Counted from the stretch's first letter, positions 150 through 37,507 are shown. The stretch is 64,000 bases of DNA from an uncultured virus (IMG/VR IMGVR_UViG_3300028840_004242) (IMGVR_UViG_3300028840_004242:1-64000); one strand, 5' to 3'. Translations and numbers: made by a program. The notes: a model not told the origin generated them from the sequence alone.

Positions 150-1478
150 ATGCCACGTGGTCAAAGTGATATACCGGAATTGAGACTGTCGGTTCTCCAG
201 AATTACATGGAGATATTTGTTACACCGCCAGAATTGATTCTAATGAACATTTTTGGATCCAGCCAGTCCCCATCAAGTAGCATCGAGTGGGAAAGCCACA
301 GAGGTGGAAGGGGTATGACCCCATTCGTTCCGCCTGGTGCTCCGGCGCCCCAGACCGCTCCTCACGGGATAAGCCAGCACAGAGCCGAGGCTGCATACTG
401 GAAAGAGAAAATGCCTTTTGATGAAGAGTTCCTAAATAATCTTCGTCAACCTGGCACCGAATCCCAACGTATGACAGCTCAGCAGAAACTGGCGAGGGAA
501 TTGGCTAACCTTAAAAACAGGAGCAATAGACGAAAGGAATGGATGTTTGCCCAGATGCTGTTCAATAATGGCTTCTCCTATGATGTACAGGGAGGCTATA
601 AGGTCAGCATTGATTATGGTATTCCTACTGCAAACCGGGTTGCACTTACCTCATCTTACTACTGGGGATCAGGTGCAAGTCGAAATGTGATAGGCGACAT
701 CCAGGACGGTAAGCAGCGAATTGCTGATGAGTGTGGCGGTAAAGTAGACATCGCTATTTTTAACTCCAGCACCTTGAAACTGCTTGCTAATGACACCAAC
801 ATCACTAACTTGTTGAAGCGAGACGCCTTCGGCACTGGCGAGCTTTATGGTAATATCGCCAGAAATGTGCATGAAATTGTGGGTGTCAACCCCCAGATCC
901 TGGGTTCCTTACTGGATATTCCTCGGTTTGTCGTTTACGATGAACAATATGAGATCAAAGCCTGGTTGACTGCTGCCGTAACAGGCGGAAGCACGACTTG
1001 GATATCAGTAGATGCCAATGAGGATTTTGTAGTTGGCGGAACGCTGAGAATTCATGATCGTAGTGCTGGCACTTGGGAGGAAAGGTACATCCTTTCAGTA
1101 GACGCCGAGGCTGGCACCGTTCAGATAGAATATCCATTTACCAATTCGTACAAAGCGATGGAAGACTATGTAACGATGGCACAGAAATTCGTACCGGACT
1201 ACAAGTTCGTTATGATGTCTACCAGAGTCGATGGTCAGAATATTGCTGAGTACAAAGAAGCACCTTTCGGAGTAGCTCGCCATTATGGTCAATACACGGA
1301 TACCAATACGGATTGGGATCCTGAAGTAACGTGGATTAGGGTGCAGGATAAAGGCTTGCCCGTTCTCTATCAGAGAGATGCGGTTTACGTTTTAACCGTT
1401 GCACAGGCAGCTGGCTTAGCAGCCACCTCAACCACCACGACTACATCATCCTCCACCACAACCACTACAACTGCTTAA
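150..1478 (+). CDS. Major capsid protein (lambda gpE-like, HK97 fold) with C-terminal poly-Thr tail
   Basis: GGAGGTG RBS. gpE-family-like segments (IEWESHRGGRGMTPFVPPG, RRKEWMFAQML, IDYGIP, WDPEVTWIRVQDKGLPV). Ends TSTTTTTSSSTTTTTTA. Confidence 0.85.
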   Translation: MPRGQSDIPELRLSVLQNYMEIFVTPPELILMNIFGSSQSPSSSIEWESHRGGRGMTPFVPPGAPAPQTAPHGISQHRAEAAYWKEKMPFDEEFLNNLRQPGTESQRMTAQQKLARELANLKNRSNRRKEWMFAQMLFNNGFSYDVQGGYKVSIDYGIPTANRVALTSSYYWGSGASRNVIGDIQDGKQRIADECGGKVDIAIFNSSTLKLLANDTNITNLLKRDAFGTGELYGNIARNVHEIVGVNPQILGSLLDIPRFVVYDEQYEIKAWLTAAVTGGSTTWISVDANEDFVVGGTLRIHDRSAGTWEERYILSVDAEAGTVQIEYPFTNSYKAMEDYVTMAQKFVPDYKFVMMSTRVDGQNIAEYKEAPFGVARHYGQYTDTNTDWDPEVTWIRVQDKGLPVLYQRDAVYVLTVAQAAGLAATSTTTTTSSSTTTTTTA

Positions 1479-1483
1479 TAGCA

Positions 1484-2815: not shown

Positions 2816-2858
2816 TGAGTTCAATGCTTGAGTTCTTTTATCTTTAGCATAGGAGATT

Positions 2859-4257: not shown

Positions 4258-4276
4258 CACAGCAAGCAATTTAAGA

Positions 4277-4802: not shown

Positions 4803-4812
4803 GAACTCTATT

Positions 4813-5125: not shown

Positions 5126-5746
5126 ATGGTTGATCGTTATGGTCCATTGACCAAAGACAGTACCACCATTGCGTTAGGTCTGGCGCAGATCAGGGTAGGC
5201 CCTTCAGCGGCTAATATTCATAATTATAATCCCTGTCTCGGTTCTGCACACAGCCTAGGCGCTATGGCAAACACCTCTTACACAGGTAATCTGGAATTCT
5301 ATAAGCTAGAGTCTGGATATCCTCTGTTAGAGGACGCTACATTCCCGCTGCGGGAATCAGCTATGCTGTCATGTGGTTTTAGGGAAATCACTCCCAAAAA
5401 CATGGCTCTAGCTTATGGCTTGGATCCTGCAGATTATACCAATGCACATAGTGGAGATGTGCCGTTGGGTAACATTTCAACCCCGGTGTTCATTAGAGTG
5501 GAGGCTTTGTATACCTTCCCTGATGGCTCCAACACCATGACCATTGTTTTCCCAAGAGCTCAGGCTATTGCTTCTATTGAGATGGAGTTTGCACCTGAGG
5601 AACCTGCTGCTGTTGCCCTTCAACTCGAGGCTAAGAGAGCAGACAGCGGGATTAGTGGTGGAAATGCGGTATGGGATAGTGCCCCTCTGGGTCACATTAT
5701 CTGGAATACCACAACTTACACCACTACCACTACTACTACAGCTTAA
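5126..5746 (+). CDS. Major tail (tube) protein with C-terminal poly-Thr tail
   Basis: AAGGAGGT RBS; tube-like segments (EITPKNMALAYG, IVFPRAQ); directly upstream of the chaperone and tape measure genes. Ends NTTTYTTTTTTTA. Confidence 0.75.
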   Translation: MVDRYGPLTKDSTTIALGLAQIRVGPSAANIHNYNPCLGSAHSLGAMANTSYTGNLEFYKLESGYPLLEDATFPLRESAMLSCGFREITPKNMALAYGLDPADYTNAHSGDVPLGNISTPVFIRVEALYTFPDGSNTMTIVFPRAQAIASIEMEFAPEEPAAVALQLEAKRADSGISGGNAVWDSAPLGHIIWNTTTYTTTTTTTA

Positions 5747-5778: not shown

Positions 5779-6231
5779 ATGCCAGACTCTTCTGATGATA
5801 GAAAACTCAATCCGCAGGTTCGCTCTGTCGAAATAGGCAAGCGAACCCTGCGGAACCTTTCCATCTATCCTCTTTCATTATCTGATCAGCTTAATCTCAC
5901 AGACCTTGTAAATAAAGGATTGAATGCTTTCCTTCAAATGGCACCTGATGAAAATGAAGAAGGAATGATGCAGTTTATAGCCTTTGTGTTAAGTTTAATC
6001 AAAGAAAATATCGAGCGTATTGTTGAGATGATTACTGATGAAGATAAAAGTATATTGGAAGAGATAACGAATGTTCAATTAATGGAAATTGTGGAGATCG
6101 TTTATAAGGAGAACTTTGAAGGCCCTTTGGGAAAGTTGACAAGCCTCTTCCCGGAGGTGAAGAGGCAGGAGCAACTGTCACCCTCGCCGAAACGGTCACC
6201 ACGTGTTGTGAGATCTACGGCTACACCTTAG
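5779..6231 (+). CDS. Tail assembly chaperone (gpG-like)
   Basis: Lies between tail tube and tape measure genes; contains an in-frame G GGA AAG slippery heptamer at 6129-6135. Confidence 0.75.
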   Translation: MPDSSDDRKLNPQVRSVEIGKRTLRNLSIYPLSLSDQLNLTDLVNKGLNAFLQMAPDENEEGMMQFIAFVLSLIKENIERIVEMITDEDKSILEEITNVQLMEIVEIVYKENFEGPLGKLTSLFPEVKRQEQLSPSPKRSPRVVRSTATP

Positions 6232-6518
6232 ACCACTTCTATAAGTTAAGTTATAGGAATGGAGGCCTTACTTTTGGACAGGTTGAGGTTTTATTTGATC
6301 ATTACCAAGACCGTATTTATAAGGAGATGCGCTTTAGGGCTTCTATGGCTGGTGTCAATCTTGACAAAGAGGTGGAGAAGAAAAAGGAAACGGATCTTAC
6401 GACCTTCAAGGATCCTGAATCCTATGAACACATGTCAATAAAGGACAGAAGAAAACTTACAATGGAGATGTTAAAGAGGATTAAACCAAAATTATCAGGT
6501 AGTTTTAAAAATGGCTGA
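6129..6518 (+). CDS. gpGT-like -1 frameshift extension of the tail assembly chaperone
   Basis: The -1 frame has no stop codon from the GGGAAAG site through the 6327..6518 ORF. Confidence 0.75.
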   Translation, partial: GKVDKPLPGGEEAGATVTLAETVTTCCEIYGYTLDHFYKLSYRNGGLTFGQVEVLFDHYQDRIYKEMRFRASMAGVNLDKEVEKKKETDLTTFKDPESYEHMSIKDRRKLTMEMLKRIKPKLSGSFKNG

Positions 6519-9500
6519 CAGAACATTAAATCTAGGTACACTTTTTACGGCTGACATACGCGATTTCCTAAGTAAAACCGCCCGCATTAGAGAAGAATTA
6601 CGCAAGATGGGAGCTGCCTTTGAACAGGGAGCTAGGGGCGGATCCAAGATGGGAAGTGAAACTGCCGCTGGTATTGACAAGGTAGATAAGAGTGTTAAGA
6701 AGAGTGGCAAGACGGTCCAGGAATACAGCAAGCAGATTGCTAAAGTGGAAGGTGCTTGGAAGCGTGTTTTGGCTGCTATGAAGGTAACCGCTTCCTATGG
6801 ATTAGCCGCCTCAGCTATCTTCTCCGTAGTGCAGGCTCTTAAAGCAGGTGTTACGGAAATCATAGATTTTGATCAAGCTCTTAAAAACCTCCAAGCTATC
6901 ACCCGTGCTACCGACAACGAAGTGCTAGGTATGGGTGAAACAATAAAAGATGTGGCACAGAAAACCAAGTTCTCTACTGGTGAAGTAGCAGAGGGAATGG
7001 TATTGTTAGGACAGGCTGGTTTTAGTGCTACAGAGGCAATGCAGTCGATGGAAGCAGTAGCTAACTTGGCTACTGGAACATTATCTGATTTAAAGACTAC
7101 TTCTGATTTACTCACCACCACTATTCGTGCATTTGGATTCCAAACGGTAGAGTCAGCCCGTGTATCTGATGTTATGTCAAATGCTATCAACCGTTCTAAA
7201 CTTACCCTTGACAAACTCCGCATAGCGTTCAACTTTGTAGGTGCCGCGGCAGCACAAACAGGCCTATCGCTGGAAGAGACCGCCGCCGCTATGATGGTTC
7301 TTGCTAATAACGGTCTGAGAGCAAGTACCATTGGTACTGGTTTGAGGCAAGTATTAGCCAGACTTCTTGCACCTAACCGCAATTTAAGAGAGGAATTTGA
7401 AGCACATGGTATTGCTCTAACCAAAGTTAATCCTAAATTAGTAGGATTCCAACAGGCTTTAATGAACCTCAAGCCTATACTGTATGACTCTGAGAGGCAA
7501 GTTGTAGATATGGGCAAGGCTTACAGGTTGTTTGGACTGCGTGGTGCCCAAGCGGCCGCTATCCTTACTCGTGCTTTTGTTACAGGTGACTTTAGTAAGA
7601 TGTTGGAGTATACCTATGAAGTGGGTTCAGCTGCTAGGATGGCTGCAAAACAGATGGAAGGTCTTGGAGTTAAGATTAAGAATTTAGCAGATAGAGCAAA
7701 ATTGATAGCAGTAGCTTTCGGTGAAGGCGGGGCAATAGGAGTTATGAAAGGTTTTATCGATGTGCTCAGAGCCGTTGCAAAAGGTATTGCTGATTTTGTT
7801 AGTTCAGGTCCTGGTAGGCTAACTACAAGTTTTACCGTGTGGACAGGTACTATTTGGTTGTCTATACAGGCTTTGAGAGGTCTGTCTGTGGCTTTTGTAT
7901 TTCTTGGCAGTAAAATAGGTGCTGCCATTACCACTTTAAGATTGTATATTCAATTATTAGTTCAACTTCAAATAGTCTCGGGTCAATCCTTACTGACATT
8001 TAAGGGAATGAAAACTGCTCTTTTAAATGTGGGTGGGATAATAAAAGGATTTAAAGGAGGATGGTTATTACTGGCGGCAGCTATAGGTGCGGTGGTAGCA
8101 GCTATTAAGTTTTGGCTAGGTGCTCAAGAAAGAGCTGTAAATGCGGCCATTAAAACTCAACAAGAGCAGGAGAAAACTGTACAGACTCTTAGGGTGTATG
8201 CTCAGGCACTTTCAGATCTTCAGGCAAGACAGAATGAAGGTAAGGATGTAAGTAAGGAACATGCTGGGTTAGTTGCTCGTTTAAGGAAAGAATATGAATT
8301 ATTGAATGGTGTGTTGTCTGAGTCAGTAGATGCAGTAGGTAGGAATGCGGTGCTTACTCAGAGAGCATATGAGGAAGAACTTAAAAAGAGTATCATTGTA
8401 ACTTCTGATTTGGCTAAAGAGCAAAAAAAGCTATTAGATGAAACTGGAAAATGGGAAGGATTTAAGGAAAGAGTAAAAAGGTTCGGTGGTGTATTTGTAG
8501 GTGTGTTAGCTGATTTTGGTCAATGGATACTCAAGGGAATTAAATGGCTTGCTGATTTTGGAGCCAAAATTATAGATTTAGCTAATATAGTGCTGAGGAA
8601 ACTGAGCCCAGCGTTTGCTTTCTTTTCGGATGTAGGAAAGAAGGGCTTAGAAACCCTTAGTAAATTTTTAGGTTACTTTACGGAAAATCTAGAAGATGCT
8701 GGTAAATCAACCGAAAAGTATAAAAAGCAGAATGAAGAGCTCATTAACACTTATGTTATTATGGCTCAAAAACTCAAAGAAATTACAAAAGGACAGGCCT
8801 CTATAGAAGATATAATAAAGCAGATCGAAGAAATGCAGGGAGTTAAGTTAAGCCCAGAGGCTATATCTGCTATAACTGAAGAACTTAATAAAGTAACCGT
8901 TAAGTTTGAGAAGGAGACTGAGGAATGGGAAAAACAGTTAGGTAAGTTACCTAAATCGTTTCAAGAGATGTTTAGGAGTTTAGATCCCATCCAGAAGGTA
9001 GAGTTCGCTAAGAGACTTAAACAGATGGAAAATGAAATAGCGGCTGCTGAGGATCAGATAAAGATACTTCTTGGTAAAGAAGAGAGTTTCCAGAAGGAAA
9101 GGGCTGCTATTAGAGCTAAATACCTTGCCAAGTTTGCGGAAGATATGGGTAAGGAAACCAAGACTACAGAGGAAAGTTTAAATGACCAGATAAATTTGAT
9201 ACAGGAATTTGTAGAGAAAGAGAATGAGGAATACGAAGGACGATTAGAGGAAAGGGAGAAAACTTATGAGAAGGAATTACTGTTAGCGCAGGGCAATGAG
9301 GAAGAGGTAACCCGTGTAAAGCAAGAAAATCTGGAGAAAAGAACCCAAATAGAGAAAGACCATCAGGATACTATTTTGGGTTATCAATCTGTTATTACAC
9401 AGAAAAGGGGAGAGCTTGAGGCCGAACTTACTGAGAAGATACTAAAGGAAAATGCTAAGGTAACCCAGGGTATAATTAATGAACTGAAGAAAAGACAATC

Positions 9501-10872
9501 AGAACTTAGAAAAGAGGCTGAAGATTTTGAAAAGACCTCTCTTGATTTTAAAAAGAAAGGTCAAGAAGAGGCTCTTGAAATATCCCGTCAGGGGATGAGT
9601 GAAGAGCAGAAGTTCCGAAGCATAATGGCTGAAAGGGATGATGTTTTAAGAAGGGCTAGAATAACTAAAGATAAGGAACTTTTCAACAAAGCACTAGAAT
9701 TAACCAAACAGTTAGCCACCGAAGTTAAGGACGAAAATGGAGAAGTAATTTACACCCTTGAAGAGAATGCCCGTAGGTTCTCCCAACAGTATCAGGATAT
9801 CGCTCGTAATGCACAACTCACGTTTAAAAATCTATCAGAGGATAGAAAACAGGAACAACAGGATGTAGAAACAGCAATCACTAAGATGACTGATTTGTTA
9901 AAAGCATACAAAGGGGAGATGGATGAAATTTCAAGGAAGAAATTGGAATTACAAGCTGATGAAGCAATGGATAAATTGGATAAAATGTACGATTGGGTCA
10001 CCAAGTTCAGAAAGGAATGGGACCAAATTGAATCTAAATCAGTAGTTTTGAATGTTGAAGTTAAGCAGAGTGGAGGAGGTGGAAGCACTTCTACCACTAC
10101 TCCTGAAGGTGAGGGTGAAACTGTAGAGTCAGATTCGAGCGAGCGAACCTATATGAGAAAGGGAGGAATAGTTAAGCAAGTTAAAGAAGTAATTCACAGA
10201 AGAATAGGCGGATGGGCGGATAGGGCTAGAGGTAAGATAGCTGGATACGGAGGCGGAGACATTGTTAGAGCTATGTTGGAGCCTGGGGAATTTGTCGCCC
10301 GTAAAGAAGCTGTTAGCAAATATGGTCCTGATTTCTTTGAAGGTCTTAATAAGATGACGGTGCCGCAGACCGTAGTTGAGGCACAAGGAGGTGCCCAAAG
10401 ATCTGGTGGGTCTGAAACTGCTTCCACTGCTGCTTCTGCTGCTGGCGACGGTGGGGATGGCGGAGGGGTAGCTGCTAAAATAGGTGGCTTAATCAAAGAA
10501 ATCAAAAAGAAAGTTATCACTTCTAATACTAAAGTAGTCAAGTTGCGAAAGGGAGGCAATGTAGTGAACTATATAAGGTCTGCTGGTGCCCGTGTTCACT
10601 CCTCCCTTTCCAATATTTCTTATAGCACCCAAAGTAGGACGGCTTATGTGGCCGCTCGTACTGGAGGTTTAATAATGGCTCCTGCCCCTGCTCCTGCCAT
10701 AGTAAAGCTACAAGAAGGAGGAAATGTTCCTTACAGCTCTAAGGAACCAGGCAAAGTTATCAATGTTAATATAGCACCTAGGTATTTAACAGGCGACCGT
10801 AGGAGTATGCGACAGGCAGCGGTTGAAATTAAACGAGAACTCGAAGCACTAGGAGTAAGATGGGGAAAATAG
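6511..10872 (+). CDS. Tape measure protein (TP901-family core)
   Basis: 1453 aa; TP901-type core (DFDQALKNLQAIT, TKFSTGEVAEGMVLLGQAG, GLRASTIGTGLR); hydrophobic central region; long coiled coil. Confidence 0.92.
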   Translation: MADRTLNLGTLFTADIRDFLSKTARIREELRKMGAAFEQGARGGSKMGSETAAGIDKVDKSVKKSGKTVQEYSKQIAKVEGAWKRVLAAMKVTASYGLAASAIFSVVQALKAGVTEIIDFDQALKNLQAITRATDNEVLGMGETIKDVAQKTKFSTGEVAEGMVLLGQAGFSATEAMQSMEAVANLATGTLSDLKTTSDLLTTTIRAFGFQTVESARVSDVMSNAINRSKLTLDKLRIAFNFVGAAAAQTGLSLEETAAAMMVLANNGLRASTIGTGLRQVLARLLAPNRNLREEFEAHGIALTKVNPKLVGFQQALMNLKPILYDSERQVVDMGKAYRLFGLRGAQAAAILTRAFVTGDFSKMLEYTYEVGSAARMAAKQMEGLGVKIKNLADRAKLIAVAFGEGGAIGVMKGFIDVLRAVAKGIADFVSSGPGRLTTSFTVWTGTIWLSIQALRGLSVAFVFLGSKIGAAITTLRLYIQLLVQLQIVSGQSLLTFKGMKTALLNVGGIIKGFKGGWLLLAAAIGAVVAAIKFWLGAQERAVNAAIKTQQEQEKTVQTLRVYAQALSDLQARQNEGKDVSKEHAGLVARLRKEYELLNGVLSESVDAVGRNAVLTQRAYEEELKKSIIVTSDLAKEQKKLLDETGKWEGFKERVKRFGGVFVGVLADFGQWILKGIKWLADFGAKIIDLANIVLRKLSPAFAFFSDVGKKGLETLSKFLGYFTENLEDAGKSTEKYKKQNEELINTYVIMAQKLKEITKGQASIEDIIKQIEEMQGVKLSPEAISAITEELNKVTVKFEKETEEWEKQLGKLPKSFQEMFRSLDPIQKVEFAKRLKQMENEIAAAEDQIKILLGKEESFQKERAAIRAKYLAKFAEDMGKETKTTEESLNDQINLIQEFVEKENEEYEGRLEEREKTYEKELLLAQGNEEEVTRVKQENLEKRTQIEKDHQDTILGYQSVITQKRGELEAELTEKILKENAKVTQGIINELKKRQSELRKEAEDFEKTSLDFKKKGQEEALEISRQGMSEEQKFRSIMAERDDVLRRARITKDKELFNKALELTKQLATEVKDENGEVIYTLEENARRFSQQYQDIARNAQLTFKNLSEDRKQEQQDVETAITKMTDLLKAYKGEMDEISRKKLELQADEAMDKLDKMYDWVTKFRKEWDQIESKSVVLNVEVKQSGGGGSTSTTTPEGEGETVESDSSERTYMRKGGIVKQVKEVIHRRIGGWADRARGKIAGYGGGDIVRAMLEPGEFVARKEAVSKYGPDFFEGLNKMTVPQTVVEAQGGAQRSGGSETASTAASAAGDGGDGGGVAAKIGGLIKEIKKKVITSNTKVVKLRKGGNVVNYIRSAGARVHSSLSNISYSTQSRTAYVAARTGGLIMAPAPAPAIVKLQEGGNVPYSSKEPGKVINVNIAPRYLTGDRRSMRQAAVEIKRELEALGVRWGK

Positions 10873-21154: not shown

Positions 21155-21155
21155 T

Positions 21156-24927: not shown

Positions 24928-24935
24928 GAGGTATC

Positions 24936-26572: not shown

Positions 26573-26573
26573 A

Positions 26574-27449: not shown

Positions 27450-27475
27450 AGCATAGTGAAGCATTAAGCAAGCAC

Positions 27476-27499
27476 AGTTCGTGCAGAATTCGTCAAATA
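27476..27499 (+). promoter_or_regulatory. Conserved intergenic motif, copy 2 (AGTTCGTGCAGAATTCGTCAAATA)
   Basis: Near-identical to 4277-4300. Preceded by AGCATTAAGCA, as is the minus-strand copy near 48500. Confidence 0.6.
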
Positions 27500-27526
27500 T
27501 CAGCGTCAATTTTAACGTGTAATTAC

Positions 27527-28543
27527 ATGACTTTACGACAATCTCGCAGGAGAAGAAAGGAATACGATAAAATGGCAGAACTTTCAGTAATTATACCGTA
27601 TGTAAATGAATATCCACAGCTGATATTCACTTTGCAATCCATCGCAGGAGAGCTGCGTGACAGGGTAGACTTCGAGATCGTAGCAGTAAACAATTATTGT
27701 GATCAATTTGTGAATCAAAGAAAGACTCAGAACCTACCTTGGGAAGAGGATAAGGGAGCCGAAGCCATTAAAGCTACAGCTCAGAAACAGAACCCATGGT
27801 TGAAACATGCAGAGTATTCTGAAAGGCTGTCCCATTGGAATGCCAAAAGGGTGGGTGTTAAGCACAGCACTGGTGATTATTTATTTTTTGTGGATTCACA
27901 CGTTATCCTTGCTCGTGACAGCCTTTATGGTATGCTCCAGTACTATAAGCAGAATGAGGAAAAGATAAACGGATCAATGCACTTACCACTCACTTATAAA
28001 ATATTAGAATCTCGTAGGTTGATATACAAACTTAATGTTGAGTGGTTTGAACATGGGTTACTTGACTACAAATTCACACCCTGTCGTGTAGACAAAGGAG
28101 ATCCTTTTGAGGTTCCCTGCATGAGTTGTTGTGGAGTACTCGTATCAAGAAAAGTATATGAAGCATTAGGAGGTTGGTCTCCTGAGCTTGGTATATATGG
28201 AGGAGGTGAGAACTTTTTTAATTTTACCCTATCCGTTTTGGGAATGAATAAATGGATCTATCCTAATGGTACTTGTTTCCATCATGGTGAAAGGAGAAGC
28301 TATCATTACCTTTATGATGACTATGTACGCAATAAGCTCATCGCTTGTTACCTTTATGGAGGAAGGGATTATGCACTCAAAGCTATTAATGGGGGTCTCA
28401 AGGGGAAACCTGAAGTTCTTCACTCTATTTATAGGAATGTAGACCTGAAATGTCGCCGCCACAGAGATCATATTCAAAGGCGTCAAAAGGTCAGTATAGA
28501 GGATTGGGTAAAGAAGTGGATGCCCCCAGACGCTTCTGCCTGA
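27527..28543 (+). CDS. GT-A glycosyltransferase with polypeptide GalNAc-transferase (GT27)-like motifs
   Basis: SVIIPYVNE; FFVDSH (DxH); ALGGWSPELGIYGGGENFF...CFHH. Likely ATG start at 27572. Confidence 0.8.
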   Translation: MTLRQSRRRRKEYDKMAELSVIIPYVNEYPQLIFTLQSIAGELRDRVDFEIVAVNNYCDQFVNQRKTQNLPWEEDKGAEAIKATAQKQNPWLKHAEYSERLSHWNAKRVGVKHSTGDYLFFVDSHVILARDSLYGMLQYYKQNEEKINGSMHLPLTYKILESRRLIYKLNVEWFEHGLLDYKFTPCRVDKGDPFEVPCMSCCGVLVSRKVYEALGGWSPELGIYGGGENFFNFTLSVLGMNKWIYPNGTCFHHGERRSYHYLYDDYVRNKLIACYLYGGRDYALKAINGGLKGKPEVLHSIYRNVDLKCRRHRDHIQRRQKVSIEDWVKKWMPPDASA

Positions 28544-28673: not shown

Positions 28674-29102
28674 ATGAAAAAATCTATTTATGTAGTAATT
28701 CTGTCATTGGTAATTATTTTTAGTGCTTACGCATTAGATTGGCAAAAAACCAACCAGGCAACTGTTGCCTGGGATGCTGTAACTACCTTGGAGGATGGTA
28801 CAGTAATACCTGCTGGAGATGTAATTAAGTACAATGTCTACCTGGCTAATTTTAAGACCGATCCTAACAAAGAGAATCCTTCTTTGCTCACTACTACACC
28901 TATTGTTGATTTACAATATGTTATTACTTTGAATACCGAAGGTCGCTATTTAGTAGGTGTTAGTGCTGTTAGGTTTGATTCAGAAGGAACTTTATTAGAA
29001 GAGAGTGAGGTTAACTGGTCGGATACTAATGGGGAATATACGCCAAACCCTTTCGGTATCGTGCATCACGTTCCACCGGGCAAGCCGAAGAACTTGAGGT
29101 AA
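28674..29102 (+). CDS. Secreted fibronectin-III-like protein
   Basis: Signal peptide MKKSIYVVILSLVIIFSAYA; VAWDAV...YNVY...PPGKPKNLR; GGAGGT RBS. Confidence 0.6.
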   Translation: MKKSIYVVILSLVIIFSAYALDWQKTNQATVAWDAVTTLEDGTVIPAGDVIKYNVYLANFKTDPNKENPSLLTTTPIVDLQYVITLNTEGRYLVGVSAVRFDSEGTLLEESEVNWSDTNGEYTPNPFGIVHHVPPGKPKNLR

Positions 29103-29151: not shown

Positions 29152-32100
29152 ATGAGACTTGTAAAATCAGAAGAACAAAACCCTCAGGATTATTTTCTGC
29201 AAAGTGGAGTCGATGAACAGGGTGATCCGATTTACAAAGATGTAAATCAAGAAGTCACAGACTATGCACCCGCCAAGGCTTTCCGCAAAAAGGTGTTCGA
29301 TGGGACTGCCGACATCGTGGTCCTGTCGAACACGATTCAGATTTATTGGAAAGGTAACCTTGTAGCTGAAGCCCAGCTTGAAGGGCAGGTAGAAATATCA
29401 CCCAACAACTGGCAAGGGCAGTTGTTTTCTTTTGCTGATTCCAACGTGCAGAAGATAACTGAGATTGAAACAGACGAAGGTACGGTTCCAGTGACTCCAT
29501 TTTTCAGGTGTTATGTAGTCAAAGACATTCCGGCACTTGGTATAACTGATGCGGTTTTCGGCATGGATGTTCACTGGGCTTTTAAAAACACCAAGCTATC
29601 GTTTTATCTGGACACGCCAGGTTTCAATGCCCGAATCCGTTGGCAATGTAGGGTTAAGGATTCAGCTTTGCGATGGGTTGATGAATCTGATCCATTGTTT
29701 CCTGTTGTTCATAAAGGCTTGTGGTTTTCTGTTTCAGACTATGAGGGCAATGTCAATCATGGATCACAGGGAGACCCAGAACCAGGATGGACTCAGCATT
29801 GGTGGACATTTGAGCCGGATGGAAAACAAATAGACGTTGCAGACGCAAGGACTCCACTTGAACGCTATGAGCAAGGCGTGGGGCTTGTGGTTGATCCGTA
29901 TTTGTCAATCGAAGAATCCGGCAGCACAGTAACAGTTTATTGTGATGGATTTAGTATATTATTTGATCCGACAGAAACTGGTGGTTTAAATTGTGACAAC
30001 AATAGTGCGACTACATGGAATTATTATTATCCCGCTCAAGTCGTTGTTTCTTCAGGTGTCTACAATTTAGGATACGACCCAAATTCAATTATAGAAATAA
30101 TTGAATCAAATGCAAACAGGGTAGTTTTGAGATTTAGAGGAAACTTTTATAATTCAACTCCTACTGTATTGACCAATTCAGATTCCATTGAAATTTATCT
30201 TTATATTTATTCAGACCGTATTGTGCAGCACAGTAAATGGATAACTTCTGGTGGAAATATTAGTATTGATAGCAATGGTCAAAATGGCTTCCCTATGAAT
30301 TATATAGGAAGTGGAGTTTTAACGAACGATACAGCAATTTATGAAAATGGTGGCTCTGAATCAACAGGTACAGGAGAGCATGGGAGTGCTGACTATGTTG
30401 GAATTGATGCTGATGAGCTGGATCATATTTTAATTAACTTATCGGAATCATCAACAGGAGGCAGTTTAAGCCAATATCATAGTAGTACAAGGCAATATCG
30501 AATAGGGTGGGATAACTGCACTATTGAGCCAGGTACACATGAGATTGTAAATGTTTGGATATTTGATACAGAAGACCGCGAAGGCTCCACAAAAATCTAT
30601 GACTCCACTGACCGCCTTGCAATGGGTGATCAATATAAAGACGCCATCTTGGATCAAAGCCCAAGCAAAGGTGATGATGTCACCGACATGATTTTACCGG
30701 CAAGGATTTCAAGCGGCACCCTGCATTCAGATGGAGCACACCATTATGAGGTGGATACAAACGATGCAGTTAAATTGACTTTAGATACAACCCGCATACG
30801 CCCTGCATTTGCAATTCATGATTGGCCTTTTCAGTATGGAACCGTGGCAAGCCCGACAGATATTTTGCTGTGCCATTTAAAATGTGATGAGAACGCCGCA
30901 AGCCCCACTCTTACAGATCAAACTGCAAACAATGCAGATGGCACTTGGAGCAACATTTCAGATGGAAGTGACAGGAATACCAACACAAGTGGAGATTCTG
31001 TTCAGGTGTTTGGCAGGGGTAGGAATTTGGATACTCAGGACGGTGCTGGACATATTGAAATGACATTTGGAAGCGGGACTGTACATGATAATGCGTTTTT
31101 TTGTCGTGGGTCACTTATGATAAAACTTTTACCCCAATTTGATTATGATACAGTTGATGGACAAGGTCTTTTTGAACTCTACATAAGTAGTGATGATTAT
31201 TTTACATGCATTTATAATCCAACGCCTGATAATTGGAATACAGGTGGTTCCGTTGGAGGATCAGCTATTTGGCAAGGTTCAGCACCACAAACTTATGATA
31301 ATTATAGTCTTAAAAGATGTCATGTGATTTTATTTTCATGGGATCTTTTAAGGCATGAGTGGTTTATTTTTTATGATGGGGTATGTGCAGCAAGTAAAAT
31401 TAATACTGGAACAGCTGGATCAGGCGATCCTGTAAATTTCGAGATTGGTTCAAGAATAAATCGTACTTATCCTGCTGATATAATCATTGACGATGTCAAA
31501 ACCTTTAGTGAGTGTCTGCTGCCCTTCGGTGCCTACTTCATCGGCAACGGCGAAGGGCTGTTGGCAGACATTAACAACCCACATGCTGATTTGACTTTTT
31601 TCTGGGATTGTCAGGCATCAGGGGCGGGGGCAGCCAAGGGTGGTGCAAACCTCGGCACGAATTATACAGTCACCCTGAATGGGTCAGGTGTGCTGACAAC
31701 CGCCGATAAGATTATTGGAACAAAAAGTTTTGACACTACGGCAGAGGGGAGCCACTCAGCTTCATTTTCAATAGATGCAAATAATTTTGATGGCAGCTAT
31801 GGGCGAATAGGTATGTGGGTTAATTTTCAGACTGTCACAGCATCCAAGTACTTTTTAGGGTTTGGAGATGCAACAGATTATATAGATTTGTATATAAGTG
31901 CGAGCAGTTATTTCTATGCTATCTGGCAATCTGATGGAGTAACAAGATATTTGGCAAGCACATTAACGCCAACAGCAGGAGTATGGTACTGGGTTGAACT
32001 TGCTTGGGATGATTCAGATTATATAGATTTCTATGTAAATGGAATCTTATTAGATCATGAAGATTCAGGTGGAAGTTGGTCAAAGACGACAGGAACAATG

Positions 32101-32241
32101 TATCTGGGTGCAGATGAAAGTGGAGCAAATTCTGCTGACTGTCTGATCGGGGCTTTTTATATAACCAAGGACAGATTTACACCACAAATCTGGACGGCAT
32201 TTGGCAAGCCGCTGCATGTGCCGCTGGTGGACTTACAATGA
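29152..32241 (+). CDS. Large virion-associated protein with LamG/ConA-like domains
   Basis: Two LamG-like C-terminal domains (GRIGMWVNF...WYWVELAWD...FYVNG; IIIDDVKTF). Confidence 0.65.
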   Translation: MRLVKSEEQNPQDYFLQSGVDEQGDPIYKDVNQEVTDYAPAKAFRKKVFDGTADIVVLSNTIQIYWKGNLVAEAQLEGQVEISPNNWQGQLFSFADSNVQKITEIETDEGTVPVTPFFRCYVVKDIPALGITDAVFGMDVHWAFKNTKLSFYLDTPGFNARIRWQCRVKDSALRWVDESDPLFPVVHKGLWFSVSDYEGNVNHGSQGDPEPGWTQHWWTFEPDGKQIDVADARTPLERYEQGVGLVVDPYLSIEESGSTVTVYCDGFSILFDPTETGGLNCDNNSATTWNYYYPAQVVVSSGVYNLGYDPNSIIEIIESNANRVVLRFRGNFYNSTPTVLTNSDSIEIYLYIYSDRIVQHSKWITSGGNISIDSNGQNGFPMNYIGSGVLTNDTAIYENGGSESTGTGEHGSADYVGIDADELDHILINLSESSTGGSLSQYHSSTRQYRIGWDNCTIEPGTHEIVNVWIFDTEDREGSTKIYDSTDRLAMGDQYKDAILDQSPSKGDDVTDMILPARISSGTLHSDGAHHYEVDTNDAVKLTLDTTRIRPAFAIHDWPFQYGTVASPTDILLCHLKCDENAASPTLTDQTANNADGTWSNISDGSDRNTNTSGDSVQVFGRGRNLDTQDGAGHIEMTFGSGTVHDNAFFCRGSLMIKLLPQFDYDTVDGQGLFELYISSDDYFTCIYNPTPDNWNTGGSVGGSAIWQGSAPQTYDNYSLKRCHVILFSWDLLRHEWFIFYDGVCAASKINTGTAGSGDPVNFEIGSRINRTYPADIIIDDVKTFSECLLPFGAYFIGNGEGLLADINNPHADLTFFWDCQASGAGAAKGGANLGTNYTVTLNGSGVLTTADKIIGTKSFDTTAEGSHSASFSIDANNFDGSYGRIGMWVNFQTVTASKYFLGFGDATDYIDLYISASSYFYAIWQSDGVTRYLASTLTPTAGVWYWVELAWDDSDYIDFYVNGILLDHEDSGGSWSKTTGTMYLGADESGANSADCLIGAFYITKDRFTPQIWTAFGKPLHVPLVDLQ

Positions 32242-32555
32242 GCAAAGGAAAATGGAAAATATATTACACCGACAGTAGCTTTAACGACGAACAGGGCTCC
32301 CCTAGGGAGGCACCGTTCTGGGACGTGCAAGACATTATTCAGTATGATTTGCACACCGAGAGAAAATATCACCAGAACGGTAGCGACTGGTATATTTTCC
32401 AAGACGGCTTCTGGGTGGGTGTGGACATGATAGGTTTAATTGACTACATGGCACATTATAAGGGAGAAATAATCGTGAAGGCGGGGCGCACCATACCCTC
32501 TAAACAATGGCAAAAAATATTCGATACGGCAAGGAAAGACCCGTACATTAAATGA
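32238..32555 (+). CDS. Hypothetical protein
   Basis: ATGA-coupled to the upstream gene; its stop overlaps the start of the next gene. Confidence 0.55.
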   Translation: MSKGKWKIYYTDSSFNDEQGSPREAPFWDVQDIIQYDLHTERKYHQNGSDWYIFQDGFWVGVDMIGLIDYMAHYKGEIIVKAGRTIPSKQWQKIFDTARKDPYIK

Positions 32556-35500
32556 CAAATCCAATTTATACACAGGAGGACTTTCAGGGCTACAAAGACG
32601 ATGCCGTTCCTGGTAGCGCAACCACGAAAGCCTCGCTTAATAATGATTGGACGCAGAATACTGATGAGAACTTCCGCATCCGTTTTGCCGTTGTGGAGTC
32701 GAACAACAAGGCGGAAGCTAACCCGATGTTCGAACTGGAATACCGCTACGATTCCACCGGCACGGGGTCAAGCTATGGCTCTTGGACTCAAGTAACAACC
32801 ACATCAGTCGAAATAGCCTTCTCGACTACCACCTACTATACTGACGGCGACCTTGACAATAACAAGCGGGTTTATGACGGAGGTGCATCGTCCAGCGGAG
32901 ATTTCGGTGAGCTGAGTGACGGCGCAACCAACGACACGATTGCTGACACCATCGACTTCGGGGGAAATGAGTTCTGTGAGATGGAGGTCTGCCTCCAGAT
33001 TAATTCTGTGAACGTTGTCAATGGTGGTTTGATACAGGTTAGGGTTAAAGACCCGAATTTATCGACATTTGACGAGACGCCCACGATCACGATTTCCTCG
33101 CCTACCACTACCACGAGTACTACCACTACCACCTTTAGTACTACAAGTACCAGCACCTATTCAACCACAAGTACCAGTACAAGCACTCAAACAAGTACAA
33201 GTACCAGCACTCAAACAAGTACAAGTACCAGCACCTATTCTACCACAAGCACCAGTACAAGCACCTACTCAACTACCAGCACAAGCACCAGCACTTTCAG
33301 TACAACCACTACCTTTAGTACAACTAGTACTACAACTACCGAACCTCCTTCTACTTGTAATATACAACAGTATGGAGGTACTAATAATTATCAACTAGTA
33401 TGGTTGCCTGGTGGTGAAATATTAATAACCACTGATGATGAACTTACAGCCTCAGAAACTTTGGAGTTCCTATTAGAGTGTGAAGGGGAGGCTGCTACTA
33501 CCACTACCACTACCACTACTTTTACTACGACCAGTACAAGTACCAGCACCTACTCAACAACCAGCACCTATTCTACCACCAGTACAAGTACCAGCACCTA
33601 TTCAACTACCAGCACCTATTCTACCACCAGTACTTCTACTAGTACCTATTCTACCACCAGTACTAGCACTCAAACAAGTACCAGCACTAGCACCTTAAGT
33701 ACAACCAGCACCAGTACCAGTACAAGCACTTCAACCTATTCAACCACCAGTACAAGCACCAGCACTTCTACCAGTACCTATTCAACTACCAGTACAAGTA
33801 CCAGTACAAGCACCAGTACCAGCACATACTCAACCACAAGTACCAGTACCAGTACAAGTACCAGTTCCTATTCAACTACCAGTACAAGTACCAGAACAAG
33901 CACAAGTACTTCAACCTATTCAACCACTAGCACATCTACTAGCACAAGTACTTCAACCTATTCAACCACAAGTACCAGTACCAGCACTAGTACATATTCA
34001 ACCACAAGTACCAGTACCAGCACAAGTACCAGCACATACTCAACAACCAGCACAAGCACCAGCACATACTCAACCACCAGCACCAGCACTAGTACATATT
34101 CAACCACAAGTACCAGCACTAGCACAAGCACCAGCACATACTCAACCACAAGTACAAGTACCAGCACAAGCACCAGCACATACTCAACAACCAGTACCAG
34201 CACAAGCACCAGTACCAGCACATACTCTACTACAAGTACCAGTACCAGCACAAGCACCAGTACCTATTCAACCACAAGCACCAGTACCAGTACTTCTACC
34301 AGCACATACTCAACTACAAGTACCAGTACCAGCACAAGCACCAGTACCTATTCAACCACAAGCACCAGCACATACTCTACCACAAGCACTAGTACCAGCA
34401 CATACTCTACCACAAGTAGCAGTACCAGCACATACTCAACTACAAGTACCAGTACCAGTACCAGCACCAGTACATACTCAACAACCAGCACTTCTACCAG
34501 CACATACTCAACAACCAGTACCAGTACAAGCACCAGCACCAGTACATACTCAACAACCAGCACCAGCACCAGCACCTATTCAACCACAAGTACCAGTACA
34601 AGCACCAGCACCAGTACATACTCAACAACCAGCACCAGCACCAGCACATACTCAACCACAAGTACCAGTACCAGTACAAGCACCAGCACATACTCTACCA
34701 CAAGTACAAGTACTAGTACATATTCAACCACAAGTAGCAGTACCAGCACTTCTACCAGCACATACTCAACAACCAGCACTTCTACCAGCACATACTCAAC
34801 AACCAGCACAAGCACCAGCACATACTCAACCACAAGTACCAGTACCAGCACAAGTACCAGCACATACTCTACTACAAGTACCAGCACCAGCACATACTCT
34901 ACTACAAGTACCAGTACCAGCACAAGCACAAGCACCAGCACTTTCAGTACAACTAGTACCTTCAGTACCACTACAACTACAGAACCAGGAGAAACTACCA
35001 CCAGTTCCACAACTACTACTTCCTTTACAAGCACCAGCACCAGCACATACTCAACTACCAGCACAAGCACCAGCACATACTCAACCACAAGTACCAGTAC
35101 CAGTACCTACTCTACCACAAGTACCAGTACCAGCACAAGCACCAGCACATACTCAACCACAAGTACAAGCACTAGTACATATTCAACCACCAGCACATCT
35201 ACTAGTACAAGCACTTCAACCTATTCAACCACAAGTACCAGTACCAGTACAAGTACCAGTACCTATTCAACCACAAGCACCAGTACCAGTACTTCTACCA
35301 GCACCTACTCAACAACCAGCACATCTACTAGTACAAGCACCAGCACATACTCTACTACAAGTACCAGCACCAGTACTTCTACCAGCACCTACTCAACAAC
35401 CAGCACCTACTCTACTACAAGCACCAGCACCTACTCAACAACCAGCACATCTACTAGTACAAGCACCAGCACATACTCTACTACAAGTACCAGCACCAGT

Positions 35501-37507
35501 ACTTCTACCAGCACATACTCAACCACAAGTACAAGCACCAGCACATACTCAACCACAAGTACAAGTACCAGCACAAGCACCAGCACATACTCAACTACCA
35601 GTACTTCTACCAGTACATACTCGACAACCAGCACCAGCACCAGCACCAGCACCAGCACATACTCAACCACAAGTACCAGTACCAGTACAAGTACCAGCAC
35701 ATACTCAACCACAAGTACAAGTACCAGCACCTACTCTACAACCAGTACATCTACTAGCACAAGTACCAGCACATACTCAACCACCAGTACCAGCACTAGT
35801 ACATATTCAACAACCAGCACAAGCACCAGTACTTCTACCAGCACCTCAACTTATAGCACTACCAGTACCTTCAGTACCACTACGACTACAGAACCAGGAG
35901 AAACTACCACTAGTTCTACAACCACTACTTCCTTTACAAGCACCAGCACATCTACCTTCAGCACAACTAGCACCAGTTCTAGTACTTCTACCAGTACCTA
36001 CTCAACCACCAGTACCAGTACCAGTACCAGTACAAGCACTTACTCTACAACCAGTACAAGTACCAGCACATACTCAACCACAAGTACCAGTACCAGTACA
36101 AGTACCAGCACATACTCAACCACCAGCACTAGTACTTCAACCTATTCAACCACCAGTACAAGCACCAGTACTTCTACCAGTACATATTCAACCACAAGTA
36201 CAAGCACCAGTACAAGCACCAGTACATACTCAACTACCAGCACTAGTACTTCAACCTATTCAACCACCAGTACAAGTACCAGCACCAGCACATCTACCTT
36301 CAGCACAACTAGCACCAGCACATCCACCTTCAGCACAACTAGCACCAGCACATCTACCTTCAGCACAACCAGCACCAGCACATACTCTACCACAAGTACC
36401 AGCACATCCACCTTTAGTACCACCAGTACAAGCACCAGCACATACTCTACCACAAGTACCAGCACATACTCAACCACAAGTACCAGCACATACTCAACCA
36501 CAAGTACCAGCACATACTCTACTACAAGCACTAGCACATACTCAACCACAAGTACCAGTACCAGCACCTACTCAACCACAAGTACCAGTACCAGCACTAG
36601 TACATATTCAACCACAAGTACCAGTACCAGCACAAGTACCAGCACATACTCAACAACCAGCACAAGCACAAGCACCTATTCGACCACCAGTACAAGCACA
36701 AGCACCAGTACCAGTACCAGTACCAGTACCTACTCTACTACTAGTACAAGCACCAGTACAAGCACCAGCACATACTCTACCACAAGTACCAGCACATCCA
36801 CCTTTAGTACCACCAGTACAAGCACAAGCACCAGCACCAGTACCAGCACAAGTACCTACTCGACAACCAGCACAAGTACCTACTCGACAACCAGTACCAG
36901 TACCAGCACAAGCACAAGCACAAGCACCTTCAGTACCACTAGTACTCTCAGCACAACGAGCACTACTGGAACAGGAACAACTTCTAGTACTTCTACCAGC
37001 ACCTTCAGTACAACCAGCACCTATTCAACCACAAGTACCAGCACATCTACTTCTAGTACTTACAGTACCACTACGACTACATACCCTCCCTCTGAGGAGC
37101 CCCACATTGGATTTACCCGTGACGAGGTCACGTTAGGATATAAAAGAGATGTTGTAACATTAGGATTTAAGGAGGTGATTGAGGTGGGCAGCACACCAAA
37201 AGTAAAGAACTTTTTCAAGCAACCTTGGGAGTCCTTCGTGCCATATGGTGACTTTGAGGATGTACTCGAGAGTGGAGAAACTATAGACACCAATAACTCT
37301 ACCGTAACTGCTAAGGATAAGGACGGCAATGCTGTTACTGATATATTGTCAGGCAGTCCCTATGTGGTAGATGTTTACAAATACTGTCAAAGAGTGGTTA
37401 GCGGGGATCCAGACTTAGATCCTTATCTAATCACTTTTCGCATACAGACTAATCTTAACAATAAATGGGAAGTTGATGTTAAGATGAAAGTAGGTGAGTT
37501 AGTATGA
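32552..37507 (+). CDS. Giant mucin-like Thr/Ser-repeat protein with globular N- and C-terminal domains
   Basis: 1651-aa uninterrupted ORF; about 1200 aa of (Y/F)STT(ST)n repeats. The C-terminal KQPWES...LESGETI...YLITFRIQT domain resembles phage fibre-attachment adaptors. Confidence 0.75.
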   Translation: MTNPIYTQEDFQGYKDDAVPGSATTKASLNNDWTQNTDENFRIRFAVVESNNKAEANPMFELEYRYDSTGTGSSYGSWTQVTTTSVEIAFSTTTYYTDGDLDNNKRVYDGGASSSGDFGELSDGATNDTIADTIDFGGNEFCEMEVCLQINSVNVVNGGLIQVRVKDPNLSTFDETPTITISSPTTTTSTTTTTFSTTSTSTYSTTSTSTSTQTSTSTSTQTSTSTSTYSTTSTSTSTYSTTSTSTSTFSTTTTFSTTSTTTTEPPSTCNIQQYGGTNNYQLVWLPGGEILITTDDELTASETLEFLLECEGEAATTTTTTTTFTTTSTSTSTYSTTSTYSTTSTSTSTYSTTSTYSTTSTSTSTYSTTSTSTQTSTSTSTLSTTSTSTSTSTSTYSTTSTSTSTSTSTYSTTSTSTSTSTSTSTYSTTSTSTSTSTSSYSTTSTSTRTSTSTSTYSTTSTSTSTSTSTYSTTSTSTSTSTYSTTSTSTSTSTSTYSTTSTSTSTYSTTSTSTSTYSTTSTSTSTSTSTYSTTSTSTSTSTSTYSTTSTSTSTSTSTYSTTSTSTSTSTSTYSTTSTSTSTSTSTYSTTSTSTSTSTSTYSTTSTSTYSTTSTSTSTYSTTSSSTSTYSTTSTSTSTSTSTYSTTSTSTSTYSTTSTSTSTSTSTYSTTSTSTSTYSTTSTSTSTSTSTYSTTSTSTSTYSTTSTSTSTSTSTYSTTSTSTSTYSTTSSSTSTSTSTYSTTSTSTSTYSTTSTSTSTYSTTSTSTSTSTSTYSTTSTSTSTYSTTSTSTSTSTSTSTFSTTSTFSTTTTTEPGETTTSSTTTTSFTSTSTSTYSTTSTSTSTYSTTSTSTSTYSTTSTSTSTSTSTYSTTSTSTSTYSTTSTSTSTSTSTYSTTSTSTSTSTSTYSTTSTSTSTSTSTYSTTSTSTSTSTSTYSTTSTSTSTSTSTYSTTSTYSTTSTSTYSTTSTSTSTSTSTYSTTSTSTSTSTSTYSTTSTSTSTYSTTSTSTSTSTSTYSTTSTSTSTYSTTSTSTSTSTSTYSTTSTSTSTSTSTYSTTSTSTSTYSTTSTSTSTSTSTYSTTSTSTSTYSTTSTSTSTSTSTSTYSTTSTFSTTTTTEPGETTTSSTTTTSFTSTSTSTFSTTSTSSSTSTSTYSTTSTSTSTSTSTYSTTSTSTSTYSTTSTSTSTSTSTYSTTSTSTSTYSTTSTSTSTSTSTYSTTSTSTSTSTSTYSTTSTSTSTYSTTSTSTSTSTSTFSTTSTSTSTFSTTSTSTSTFSTTSTSTYSTTSTSTSTFSTTSTSTSTYSTTSTSTYSTTSTSTYSTTSTSTYSTTSTSTYSTTSTSTSTYSTTSTSTSTSTYSTTSTSTSTSTSTYSTTSTSTSTYSTTSTSTSTSTSTSTSTYSTTSTSTSTSTSTYSTTSTSTSTFSTTSTSTSTSTSTSTSTYSTTSTSTYSTTSTSTSTSTSTSTFSTTSTLSTTSTTGTGTTSSTSTSTFSTTSTYSTTSTSTSTSSTYSTTTTTYPPSEEPHIGFTRDEVTLGYKRDVVTLGFKEVIEVGSTPKVKNFFKQPWESFVPYGDFEDVLESGETIDTNNSTVTAKDKDGNAVTDILSGSPYVVDVYKYCQRVVSGDPDLDPYLITFRIQTNLNNKWEVDVKMKVGELV
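33494..37085 (+). repeat. Degenerate coding tandem repeat (ACCAGC/ACAAGT/ACCAGT hexamers punctuated by TAY-TCN-ACN-ACN)
   Basis: Directly visible A/C-rich low-complexity tract with varied synonymous codons. Confidence 0.95.

Follow-up and report, generated by a model that had tools for sequence, protein, structure and literature searches.

A tailed phage known from its genome sequence appears to carry genes for coating its own virion with O-linked glycans. The sequence analysed, here called the window, comprises bases 1-64000 of the 87,830-bp IMG/VR virus record IMGVR_UViG_3300028840_004242, which has direct terminal repeats and is rated complete. Plus-strand positions 150-37860 form the late operon of a siphovirus-like phage, in which proteins with threonine/serine (S/T) tails or tracts are encoded together with a cluster of glycosyltransferases (GTs), sulfotransferases and methyltransferases (19311-28543), led by a GT of the GT4 kind. 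Judged from sequence comparisons, these genes probably constitute a phage-encoded O-glycosylation system, in which S/T tails and tracts on exposed virion proteins act as acceptors for a five-gene enzyme core with lineage-specific tailoring. Such a virion O-glycan had been proposed from the window's sequence alone (the sequence-only reading), and the proposal is now supported by the concerted behaviour of the tails, their co-occurrence with GT4, and the linkage of GT4 to tails in phages with unrelated capsids. Because the S/T proteins share a late operon with a cassette that travels with such tails in unrelated phages, the particle is probably sugar-coated by its own enzymes.

Threonine/serine tails and tracts on late proteins

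A protein was scored as S/T-tailed when at least 9 of its last 12 residues were S or T, and as containing an S/T tract when at least 24 of 30 residues were. All five S/T-bearing late proteins named in the sequence-only reading were found where it had placed them; these and all other late genes described below lie on the plus strand. The 442-aa major capsid protein (150-1478; PF03864 3e-34, phrog_29 1.8e-48) has its tail at residues 423-442 (nt 1416-1475), with 16 S/T residues and the terminal sequence ATSTTTTTSSSTTTTTTA. A 221-aa neck protein (2150-2815) has its tail at residues 201-221 (nt 2750-2812), ending in TTTTTTTYTTTTTTTA, and a 206-aa protein (5126-5746) at residues 193-206 (nt 5702-5743), ending in TTTYTTTTTTTA. 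The last of these is a putative tail tube protein by gene order, lying directly upstream of the chaperone and tape-measure genes. The tails on capsid, neck and tube proteins are 12-20 residues long and offer 10-16 potential sites each.

The neck protein had been labelled as head closure, a name that fits its predicted structure. It has no family match, and an AF2 (AlphaFold2) model built with 16 homologues (predicted local distance difference test score, pLDDT, 78) consists of two stopper/connector-like beta-barrels followed by a tail at pLDDT ~50 without secondary structure. When compared with VIA-align, residues 1-100 matched the neck protein of phage Chi (8vhx_F; Z 10.1, root-mean-square deviation 2.5, 95 residues aligned) and the R4C stopper (8gtf_M; Z 9.5), and residues 95-205 matched a gene transfer agent protein (6tba_3A; Z 9.3), XkdH (3f3b; Z 9.2) and the Douge connector (8zdl_M; Z 9.2), with Z 9.0-9.3 overall. 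The modelled protein thus has the small beta-barrel fold of connector proteins and, since both barrels match solved neck or connector structures, head closure or neck protein is a fair label for it. Foldseek returned weak rows for the same model and no match at E ≤ 0.001. Assignment as an Ad1 adaptor was rejected, with a probability of 16% in hhalign against the Ad1 protein of another phage.

The remaining two proteins are larger and mucin-like. The first (16079-19249; 1,056 aa) has two S/T tracts around a globular middle domain, at residues 274-456 (nt 16898-17446) and 592-838 (nt 17852-18592), containing 152 and 215 S/T residues (367 in all), and a globular C-terminal domain. It has no Pfam match, and its N-terminal domain is paralogous to that of the protein encoded at 14220-16097. 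The listed GTG start at 16079 overlaps this preceding gene; an ATG at 16097 is probably the true start, since the resulting MAKAFIRF... parallels the MAKTFIRF... that opens 14220-16097. The second (32552-37507) is a giant of 1,651 aa, 74% S/T, in which tracts of the STSTSTYSTT type at residues 174-270 (nt 33071-33361) and 311-1516 (nt 33482-37099) hold 78 and 1,084 S/T residues (1,162 in all) between globular N- and C-terminal domains; its C-terminal 169 aa gave a sub-threshold match to the Gp77 fibre-tail adaptor (E 0.023). By gene position, both are presumably located on the virion. The tract DNA is an imperfect repeat whose units match at just 60-90%, so that peptide composition is kept while nucleotides drift.

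The S/T feature exceeds chance. No protein satisfied the tail or tract definition among 343 open reading frames (ORFs) of three untailed relatives or among 561 ORFs of 38 control loci, both described below.

A cluster of glycosyl-, sulfo- and methyltransferases

The two giant ORFs enclose a run of 11 ORFs on their own strand (19311-28543) in which, as the sequence-only reading had it, glycosyl-, sulfo- and methyltransferases can be recognised. At E < 0.01, Pfam detects a GT4, a GT2 and a GT1-like protein, along with two methyltransferases and a single sulfotransferase. The enzymes are named here by their first nucleotide and classed as core or accessory by their conservation near GT4 homologues in other phages.

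The cassette marker, 19311 (19311-20573), is a GT-B glycosyltransferase of the GT4 kind. Both Rossmann-like domains of a GT4 enzyme are recognised (Glyco_transf_4 1.2e-6, Glycos_transf_1 1.7e-5), with scores near or below the curated cut-offs. Its structure neighbours in the ESM Atlas are GT4 clusters (template modelling score, TM, 0.80-0.89), the nearest of them 92-100% viral; a profile search of the family against the PDB gave nothing at E ≤ 0.01. The other four core enzymes are a GT-B-like GT (22576-23715; Glycos_transf_1 0.0032; profile matches in the PDB to WbaZ-1, 9e-5, and CapJ, 8e-4), a class I S-adenosylmethionine (SAM) methyltransferase (23702-24301; Methyltransf_23 1.5e-5), a GT-A fold GT (24936-25664), and a 338-aa GT-A enzyme resembling polypeptide GalNAc-transferases (ppGalNAc-Ts) (27527-28543; PF00535 5e-10). 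The assignment of 24936 came from its fold model (AF2, pLDDT 93.4), for which Foldseek found SpsA (4e-10), K4CP, POMGnT1, GnT-I and TarP; its family has no sequence-profile match in the PDB. A relationship between the 24936 and 27527 families was considered and rejected, as hhalign showed none.

The accessory genes include a class I methyltransferase resembling CmcI and rhamnosyl O-methyltransferases (20570-21154), which has no Pfam match and resembles RMNT_CmcI clusters in the ESM Atlas at TM 0.75-0.83, and two paralogues of other cluster members. One, GT-A-like, is related to the 24936 family (21156-21878; hhalign 91%, E 1e-6), and the other, sulfotransferase-like, to 24298 (21866-22579; 32% identity by BLASTP, 4e-19; Sulfotransfer_2 E 0.019). 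The sulfotransferase 24298 itself (24298-24927) matches Sulfotransfer_2 over residues 3-98 (1.6e-6, above the cut-off) and phrog_3347, 'galactose-3-O-sulfotransferase' (5.9e-7). It shares with 21866 a HIPxxGGT stretch, which we take to be an N-terminal P-loop-like site for the sulfate donor PAPS (3'-phosphoadenosine-5'-phosphosulfate). An accessory 308-aa protein (25646-26572) is without assignment (Glyco_trans_1_2 at E 0.08 only), and hhalign found nothing between it and the 22576 family. The last methyltransferase, class I and SAM-dependent (26574-27449; Methyltransf_11 2e-16), has an S/T-rich C-terminal stretch of its own at residues 260-274.

Hydrophobic segments are absent from all 11 enzymes, and the cluster contains no flippase, polymerase, lipid-carrier (polyprenyl-phosphate) transferase or nucleotide-sugar gene.

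Tails and GT4 are gained or lost together among close relatives

Relatives of the capsid protein are encoded in 47 viral loci, and in 43 of these the C-terminus is complete. The S/T tail is present in 28 of the 43 (58-100% identity) and absent from 15 (40-53% identity, plus one at 60%). Capsid and neck tails were concordant in all 33 relatives holding both genes complete. On the neck protein the tail is a clean appended module: homologues without it stop exactly at ...EDTR, and tailed ones run on with 10-45 S/T residues. Tube tails split in the same way, with tails in 14 loci and none on the tube homologues of three untailed relatives (G005-G007).

The sequence-only reading had suggested looking across related genomes for co-occurrence of tails and GT cluster. 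The outcome was favourable, GT4 being present in four of four tailed long relatives and in neither of two complete untailed ones. All four tailed records (G001-G004) also encode 22576, 23702 and 24936, and three encode 26574 and 27527 as well; the fourth contig ends at that point. In G001, the homologue of 14220-16097 also ends in a poly-Thr tail. GT4 is absent from the complete untailed genomes, G006 and G007, and from three incomplete untailed ones.

Untailed relatives carry a different glycan-type cluster of 9-13 kb, placed directly after the neck gene within the structural operon (L055:4724-15229 in G005, L060:6162-14867 in G006, and L066:10758 to L062:9931 in G007). It comprises a GT1+GT9 fusion, a GT2, a DegT aminotransferase, a hexapeptide acyltransferase, radical-SAM/SPASM and B12-radical-SAM enzymes, CmcI-like methyltransferases and a homing-endonuclease insert. 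S/T tails therefore go with one cluster type and not with glycan genes generally. The tail region of G007 also encodes a protein with RCC1 repeats (L063:2627-3901; PF25390 1.5e-49).

Linkage of GT4 to S/T-tailed virion proteins extends to unrelated capsid lineages

A search with one GT4 sequence returned only the phage itself. Searching with an alignment of five GT4 proteins yielded at least 144 viral-contig stretches, 80 of which were kept with 10 kb on each side (78 non-self), and the family comprises 731 representative clusters at E ≤ 0.001. An S/T-tailed or S/T-tract ORF was found within 10 kb in 51 of the 78 non-self loci, and across all 80 loci every S/T ORF (122/122) lies on the GT4 strand. 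Around the most distant GT4s (≤36% identity), 12 of 23 loci contain S/T proteins. As a matched control, 38 loci around the GT1+GT9 fusion of the other cluster were taken; none contains an S/T-tailed or S/T-tract protein.

The enzymes that most often accompany GT4 are 27527 (34/78 loci), 22576 (33/78), 24936 (31/78) and 23702 (29/78). Homologues of 26574 are found in 7/78 loci, those of 20570, 21156 and 25646 in 4/78 each, and those of the mucin-like protein 16079-19249 in 14/78.

Homologues of this capsid protein are missing from five long GT4 records. In three of the five (G011, G014 and G015, analysed whole), S/T tails are carried by one major head protein, two each of Ad1 adaptors and major tail proteins, a tube protein of the Phage_tube_2 family, a gpJ-like tip protein and other structural proteins. 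At more distant GT4 loci, two or three small S/T-tailed proteins, or else a tailed cement protein, come after the capsid gene and precede GT4, GT2s, a UDP-sugar dehydrogenase, epimerase/dehydratases and methyltransferases; one such locus has unrelated sulfotransferases of the Sulfotransfer_3 family. Among 71 S/T proteins near GT4, 13 could be placed in a PHROG functional category, every one of them head or tail (13/13), 12 match families of unknown function and 46 match nothing.

The tails themselves are alike. In 115 unique tailed proteins the median tail is 24 residues, 50% Thr and 26% Ser, and 103 of the tails end in at least four Thr followed by 0-3 further residues, of which a final Ala is commonest. 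This common TTTTT-A ending suggests one recognition mode.

GT4 was found in none of 50,697 GenBank phage records. In 185,579 species genomes it occurs on six contigs of metagenome-assembled genomes only, with mixed labels, three of them Desulfobacteraceae or Deltaproteobacteria; host assignment from these six contigs was judged too weak to name a host. One 33-kb viral record with S/T-tailed proteins (L282; G021:C1:1833-5814) carries two tandem GT4 copies (6e-165 and 8e-140).

The 27527 family resembles polypeptide GalNAc-transferases

The description of the predicted glycan as mucin-type gained support from 27527, which aligns with animal ppGalNAc-Ts. Compared with the PDB, the family profile matched ppGalNAc-T10 over the whole catalytic domain (5.6e-8), and also T7, T9, T4, T12, T1 and T2 (human and fly). 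The DxH, GGEN (Gal/GalNAc-T motif) and later His positions of these enzymes are aligned. The DxH metal motif corresponds to D123-x-H125, invariant in 15 of 15 family members and aligned with DSHC of GalNAc-T10, T7 and T9. For the WGGEN-type motif, LGiYGGGENfinF aligns with LEIWGGEqyEIsF, and further on HH-G aligns with VGH of T9; G225-G227, E228 and H252 are invariant in the family. On this sequence likeness, 27527 is a candidate for the enzyme that would initiate the glycan chain.

At least 800 database relatives of 27527 were found and, among the matches listed with a source name, they are called just 'glycosyltransferase' or 'hypothetical protein'. The sole cultured-phage relative among GenBank phages is encoded at 1567-2565 of the acidobacterial Tunturiibacter phage Tunturi_4 (PP885687), at 23% identity. 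This GT-A protein has an LDNHC stretch of the DxH type, and its gene lies between terminase and portal; no S/T tails were found on the head, adaptor or tail proteins of Tunturi_4.

Comparison with known glycosylation systems

Virion glycosylation by mycobacteriophages shields particles from antibodies and, to our knowledge, phage-encoded virion glycosylation has been documented only for a few mycobacteriophages. For Che8, Corndog and Myrna, phage GTs have been proposed to O-glycosylate the C-termini of capsid and tail-tube subunits (Freeman et al. 2023, as cited in passages of PMC12619734, PMC13313380 and PMC12363180), and a passage of PMC13313380 describes methyltransferases accompanying the GTs of related actinophages. 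The S/T tails of the present phage are likewise C-terminal on capsid and tube, and on the neck protein as well. In contrast, the Che8 capsid ends in ...NKTGS and its major tail protein in ...YSDGS, with no poly-Thr tail, and the three Che8 GTs are encoded at the right-hand end of the genome, well away from the structural genes, whereas those of this phage are within the late operon. When Che8 gp108-110 were compared by BLASTP with 20 late-operon proteins (the 11 enzymes and nine structural neighbours), the best E value was 0.25, to the non-enzyme 29152, and 0.68 for any enzyme, so that no homology was detected. Compared with the mycobacteriophage type, this phage adds many sites per tail, a tagged neck protein, giant mucin-like proteins, sulfotransferases and uncultured hosts.

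Mucin-type O-glycosylation in animals and apicomplexans uses homopolymeric Ser/Thr stretches as acceptors, as a passage of PMC3417536 states. The 27527 family aligns with the initiating GT27 enzymes over the GT-A catalytic domain, but differs in lacking the type II membrane anchor and the C-terminal ricin-type lectin domain: its 338 aa contain no hydrophobic segment and gave no lectin-domain match. Unlike the Golgi-located GT27 enzymes it would be cytoplasmic, and Pfam places it in GT2. The predicted system would thus work like mycobacteriophage and mucin-type glycosylation, differing from the former in enzyme homology and matching GT27 in part.

Two further systems invite comparison. In Gram-positive cocci, cytoplasmic GT-B (GT4-type) and GT-A enzymes (GtfA/GtfB and accessory GTs) are encoded beside the long Ser/Thr-repeat proteins known as serine-rich-repeat adhesins, and modify them before export. 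The phage has the same pairing of GT-B (GT4-type) and GT-A genes with long Ser/Thr-repeat proteins, but it has no SecA2/Y2 export genes and its predicted acceptors are virion subunits. Giant viruses (mimivirus fibrils, chlorovirus capsid) use multi-gene glycan machinery to decorate their own surface proteins, including with methylated sugars; these are, however, viruses of eukaryotes with other enzymes and acceptor types. Literature searches turned up no account of phage structural proteins with poly-Thr tails, nor of ppGalNAc-T-like enzymes encoded by phages.

Proposed mechanism

In the proposed system, the acceptor on exposed virion proteins would be a portable module: either a C-terminal Thr/Ser tail, disordered and typically ending in TTTTT-A, or, in fibre-like proteins, long internal STSTSTY tracts. 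Soluble cytoplasmic enzymes, expressed late, would decorate these acceptors before or during assembly, using nucleotide sugars of the host. The core would consist of the GT4, the GT-B-like enzyme, the SpsA-like GT-A, the ppGalNAc-T-like GT-A and a methyltransferase, and in this phage the glycan may be extended and trimmed by the products of the additional GT-A, O-methyltransferase and sulfotransferase genes. From the enzyme families present, the glycan is presumably methylated and sulfated. We likewise infer the attachment of sugars, their composition and the purpose of the coat, for which shielding, adhesion to polysaccharide matrices and colloidal stability are candidates. A broader proposition is evenly balanced in our judgement: that environmental tailed phages share a widespread 'glyco-tag' system, in which a transferable poly-Thr tag (TTTTT-A) and mucin-like tracts mark exposed virion proteins as substrates of a mobile cassette led by GT4, one of whose enzymes is a cytoplasmic relative of the animal mucin-initiating enzymes.

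Evidence against the proposal and alternative explanations

Several observations weigh against virion O-glycosylation as proposed. The Fisher p of 3e-13 for 51/78 against 0/38 overstates the evidence, the loci being related and not phylogenetically independent. In 27 of the 78 GT4 loci no S/T protein lies within 10 kb, which may be a limit of reach, since the capsid tail of the window itself lies 18 kb from GT4. The contig of the untailed relative G005 ends 3.8 kb past the tape measure, so that a cluster of the window's type could lie beyond. The untailed relatives have a glycan cluster in the structural operon, and a GT cluster in that position does not by itself imply S/T acceptors. With regard to the components, the tube protein has no family match of its own, the likeness of 27527 to ppGalNAc-Ts is moderate (E ~1e-8) and is equalled on the N-terminal half by TarP, a teichoic-acid GlcNAc-transferase, and the sulfotransferases (3/78 loci each) and most methyltransferases are accessory, outside the conserved core.

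Poly-Thr ends also occur apart from the cassette. A scan for TTTTTTA followed by a stop gave at least 125 stretches, of which about half are chance frames. This GT4 is missing from nine of ten long records with such an end, four of the nine being 100% complete, and short poly-Thr ends are therefore not diagnostic of the cassette. The GT4-less ends are mostly T6-8 runs on single small proteins and largely fall short of the S/T tail definition; of five GT4-less records checked for other GTs, four have another GT1 or GT2 and one has none. A conserved protein of ~125 aa ending ...CNTPEPC...TIVPNPTTTTTTTA recurs in phage records of 103-113 kb (L276, L301 and L265; G017 and G018) with GT2 genes and without GT4, and may represent a different pairing of tag and enzyme.

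The alternative that survives best, although unlikely, is that the cluster remodels host surface glycans (lipopolysaccharide, capsule or S-layer glycan) against superinfection or for release, and that the S/T tails, free of glycan, act as hydrophilic bristles or spacers. Alteration of host surface glycans by phage GTs is well established, the top PDB match for the N-terminal half of 27527 is the prophage-encoded TarP, and the structural operon of the untailed relatives has glycan clusters too. Serotype conversion by phage GTs is mentioned in a passage of PMC12619734. This explanation leaves unaccounted for that GT4 tracks S/T tails across unrelated capsid lineages and the other GT cluster never does (0/38). 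A flippase, polymerase, polyprenyl-phosphate transferase and membrane segment are moreover all lacking from the cluster, which sits in the late operon, and no integrase turned up in Pfam scans or in the PHROG scan of late genes.

Slightly less likely still, glycosylation would be confined to the two giant tract proteins or to other fibre proteins, with the tails of capsid, neck and tube serving assembly, solubility or charge-free spacing. The giant proteins do directly flank the cluster, and the short poly-Thr ends in records without this GT4 fit such a division. The tails of capsid, neck and tube nevertheless come and go with the cassette among close relatives, distant phages pair GT4 with small tailed proteins and a tailed tube, adaptor or head protein in the absence of any giant tract protein, and the shared tail ending suggests that all are recognised in one way.

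Hypermodification of phage DNA, as in T-even and 5-hydroxymethylpyrimidine phages, is highly improbable: phage GTs are classically known for glycosylating DNA (according to a passage of PMC12619734) and the genome carries FolE, QueD and QueE-like 7-deazaguanine genes, but these are encoded on the opposite strand, in the early region, no thymidylate-synthase-like hydroxymethylase came up when the genome was scanned with Pfam, sulfotransferases and a ppGalNAc-T-like enzyme are ill-suited to DNA chemistry, and the linkage to S/T tails would be left unexplained.

Genome context

The late operon runs from the major capsid gene through connector genes, the putative tube, chaperones, tape measure, distal tail genes, enzyme cluster and further large proteins to a small membrane protein. 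The chaperone genes (5779-6231 and 6327-6518) separate the putative tube from the tape measure (6511-10872; PF10145 1e-35), which is followed by distal tail genes (10874-11608, 11605-14220 and 14220-16097), a region with a match to CHB_HEX_C_1 (2.6e-12). Downstream of the enzyme cluster are a protein of 142 aa (28674-29102) that has a hydrophobic N-terminal segment (signal or anchor), no family match and a homologue in just 1/78 GT4 loci, a 1,029-aa LamG_3 protein (29152-32241; Laminin_G_3 1.6e-9) and a 105-aa ORF (32238-32555). The stretch from 79 to 87.8 kb of the record, which wraps round to the capsid gene, holds the terminase and portal genes together with those for an NlpC/P60 protein and a scaffold-like protein.

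The enzyme cluster is embedded in this operon, with overlapping ORFs. Promoter-like sites were fewer than in shuffled sequences, and an excess of terminator-like sites was discarded as repeat artefacts on the minus strand; the scan thus speaks neither for nor against a separate transcription unit. A search for tRNA genes returned none.

Replication and recombination genes occupy the minus strand between 38.5 and 78 kb, together with a 7-deazaguanine-type module (55939-61470) that suggests modified DNA. The module includes GTP cyclohydrolase I/FolE (59211-59798), PTPS/QueD (61039-61470) and a QueE-like radical SAM protein (60444-61100), adjoined by another radical SAM protein (56979-58322) and a 347-aa protein with a weak Glycos_transf_1 match (55939-56982; E 0.004). 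A family A DNA polymerase (49743-52388, minus strand) has an N-terminal domain of the uracil-DNA-glycosylase superfamily and a 3'-5' exonuclease domain.

Implications

If the proposed system is real, self-glycosylation would be common in uncultured phages, given 731 GT4 clusters and at least 144 viral stretches. On the broader 'glyco-tag' proposition, many of these phages would wear a dense mucin-like coat made from their own genes, in this case perhaps methylated and sulfated. The acceptor would be a simple, portable peptide tag that could be used to display glycans on phage particles, and the pair of enzyme and tag is directly testable. A soluble bacterial-virus relative of the mucin-initiating transferases would be involved. 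On the broader proposition, GT27 would also have counterparts among phages and bacteria that are close in function and possibly in evolution. Models of phage surface chemistry in sediments, biofilms and mucus would then change with respect to adsorption, aggregation, decay and immune recognition.

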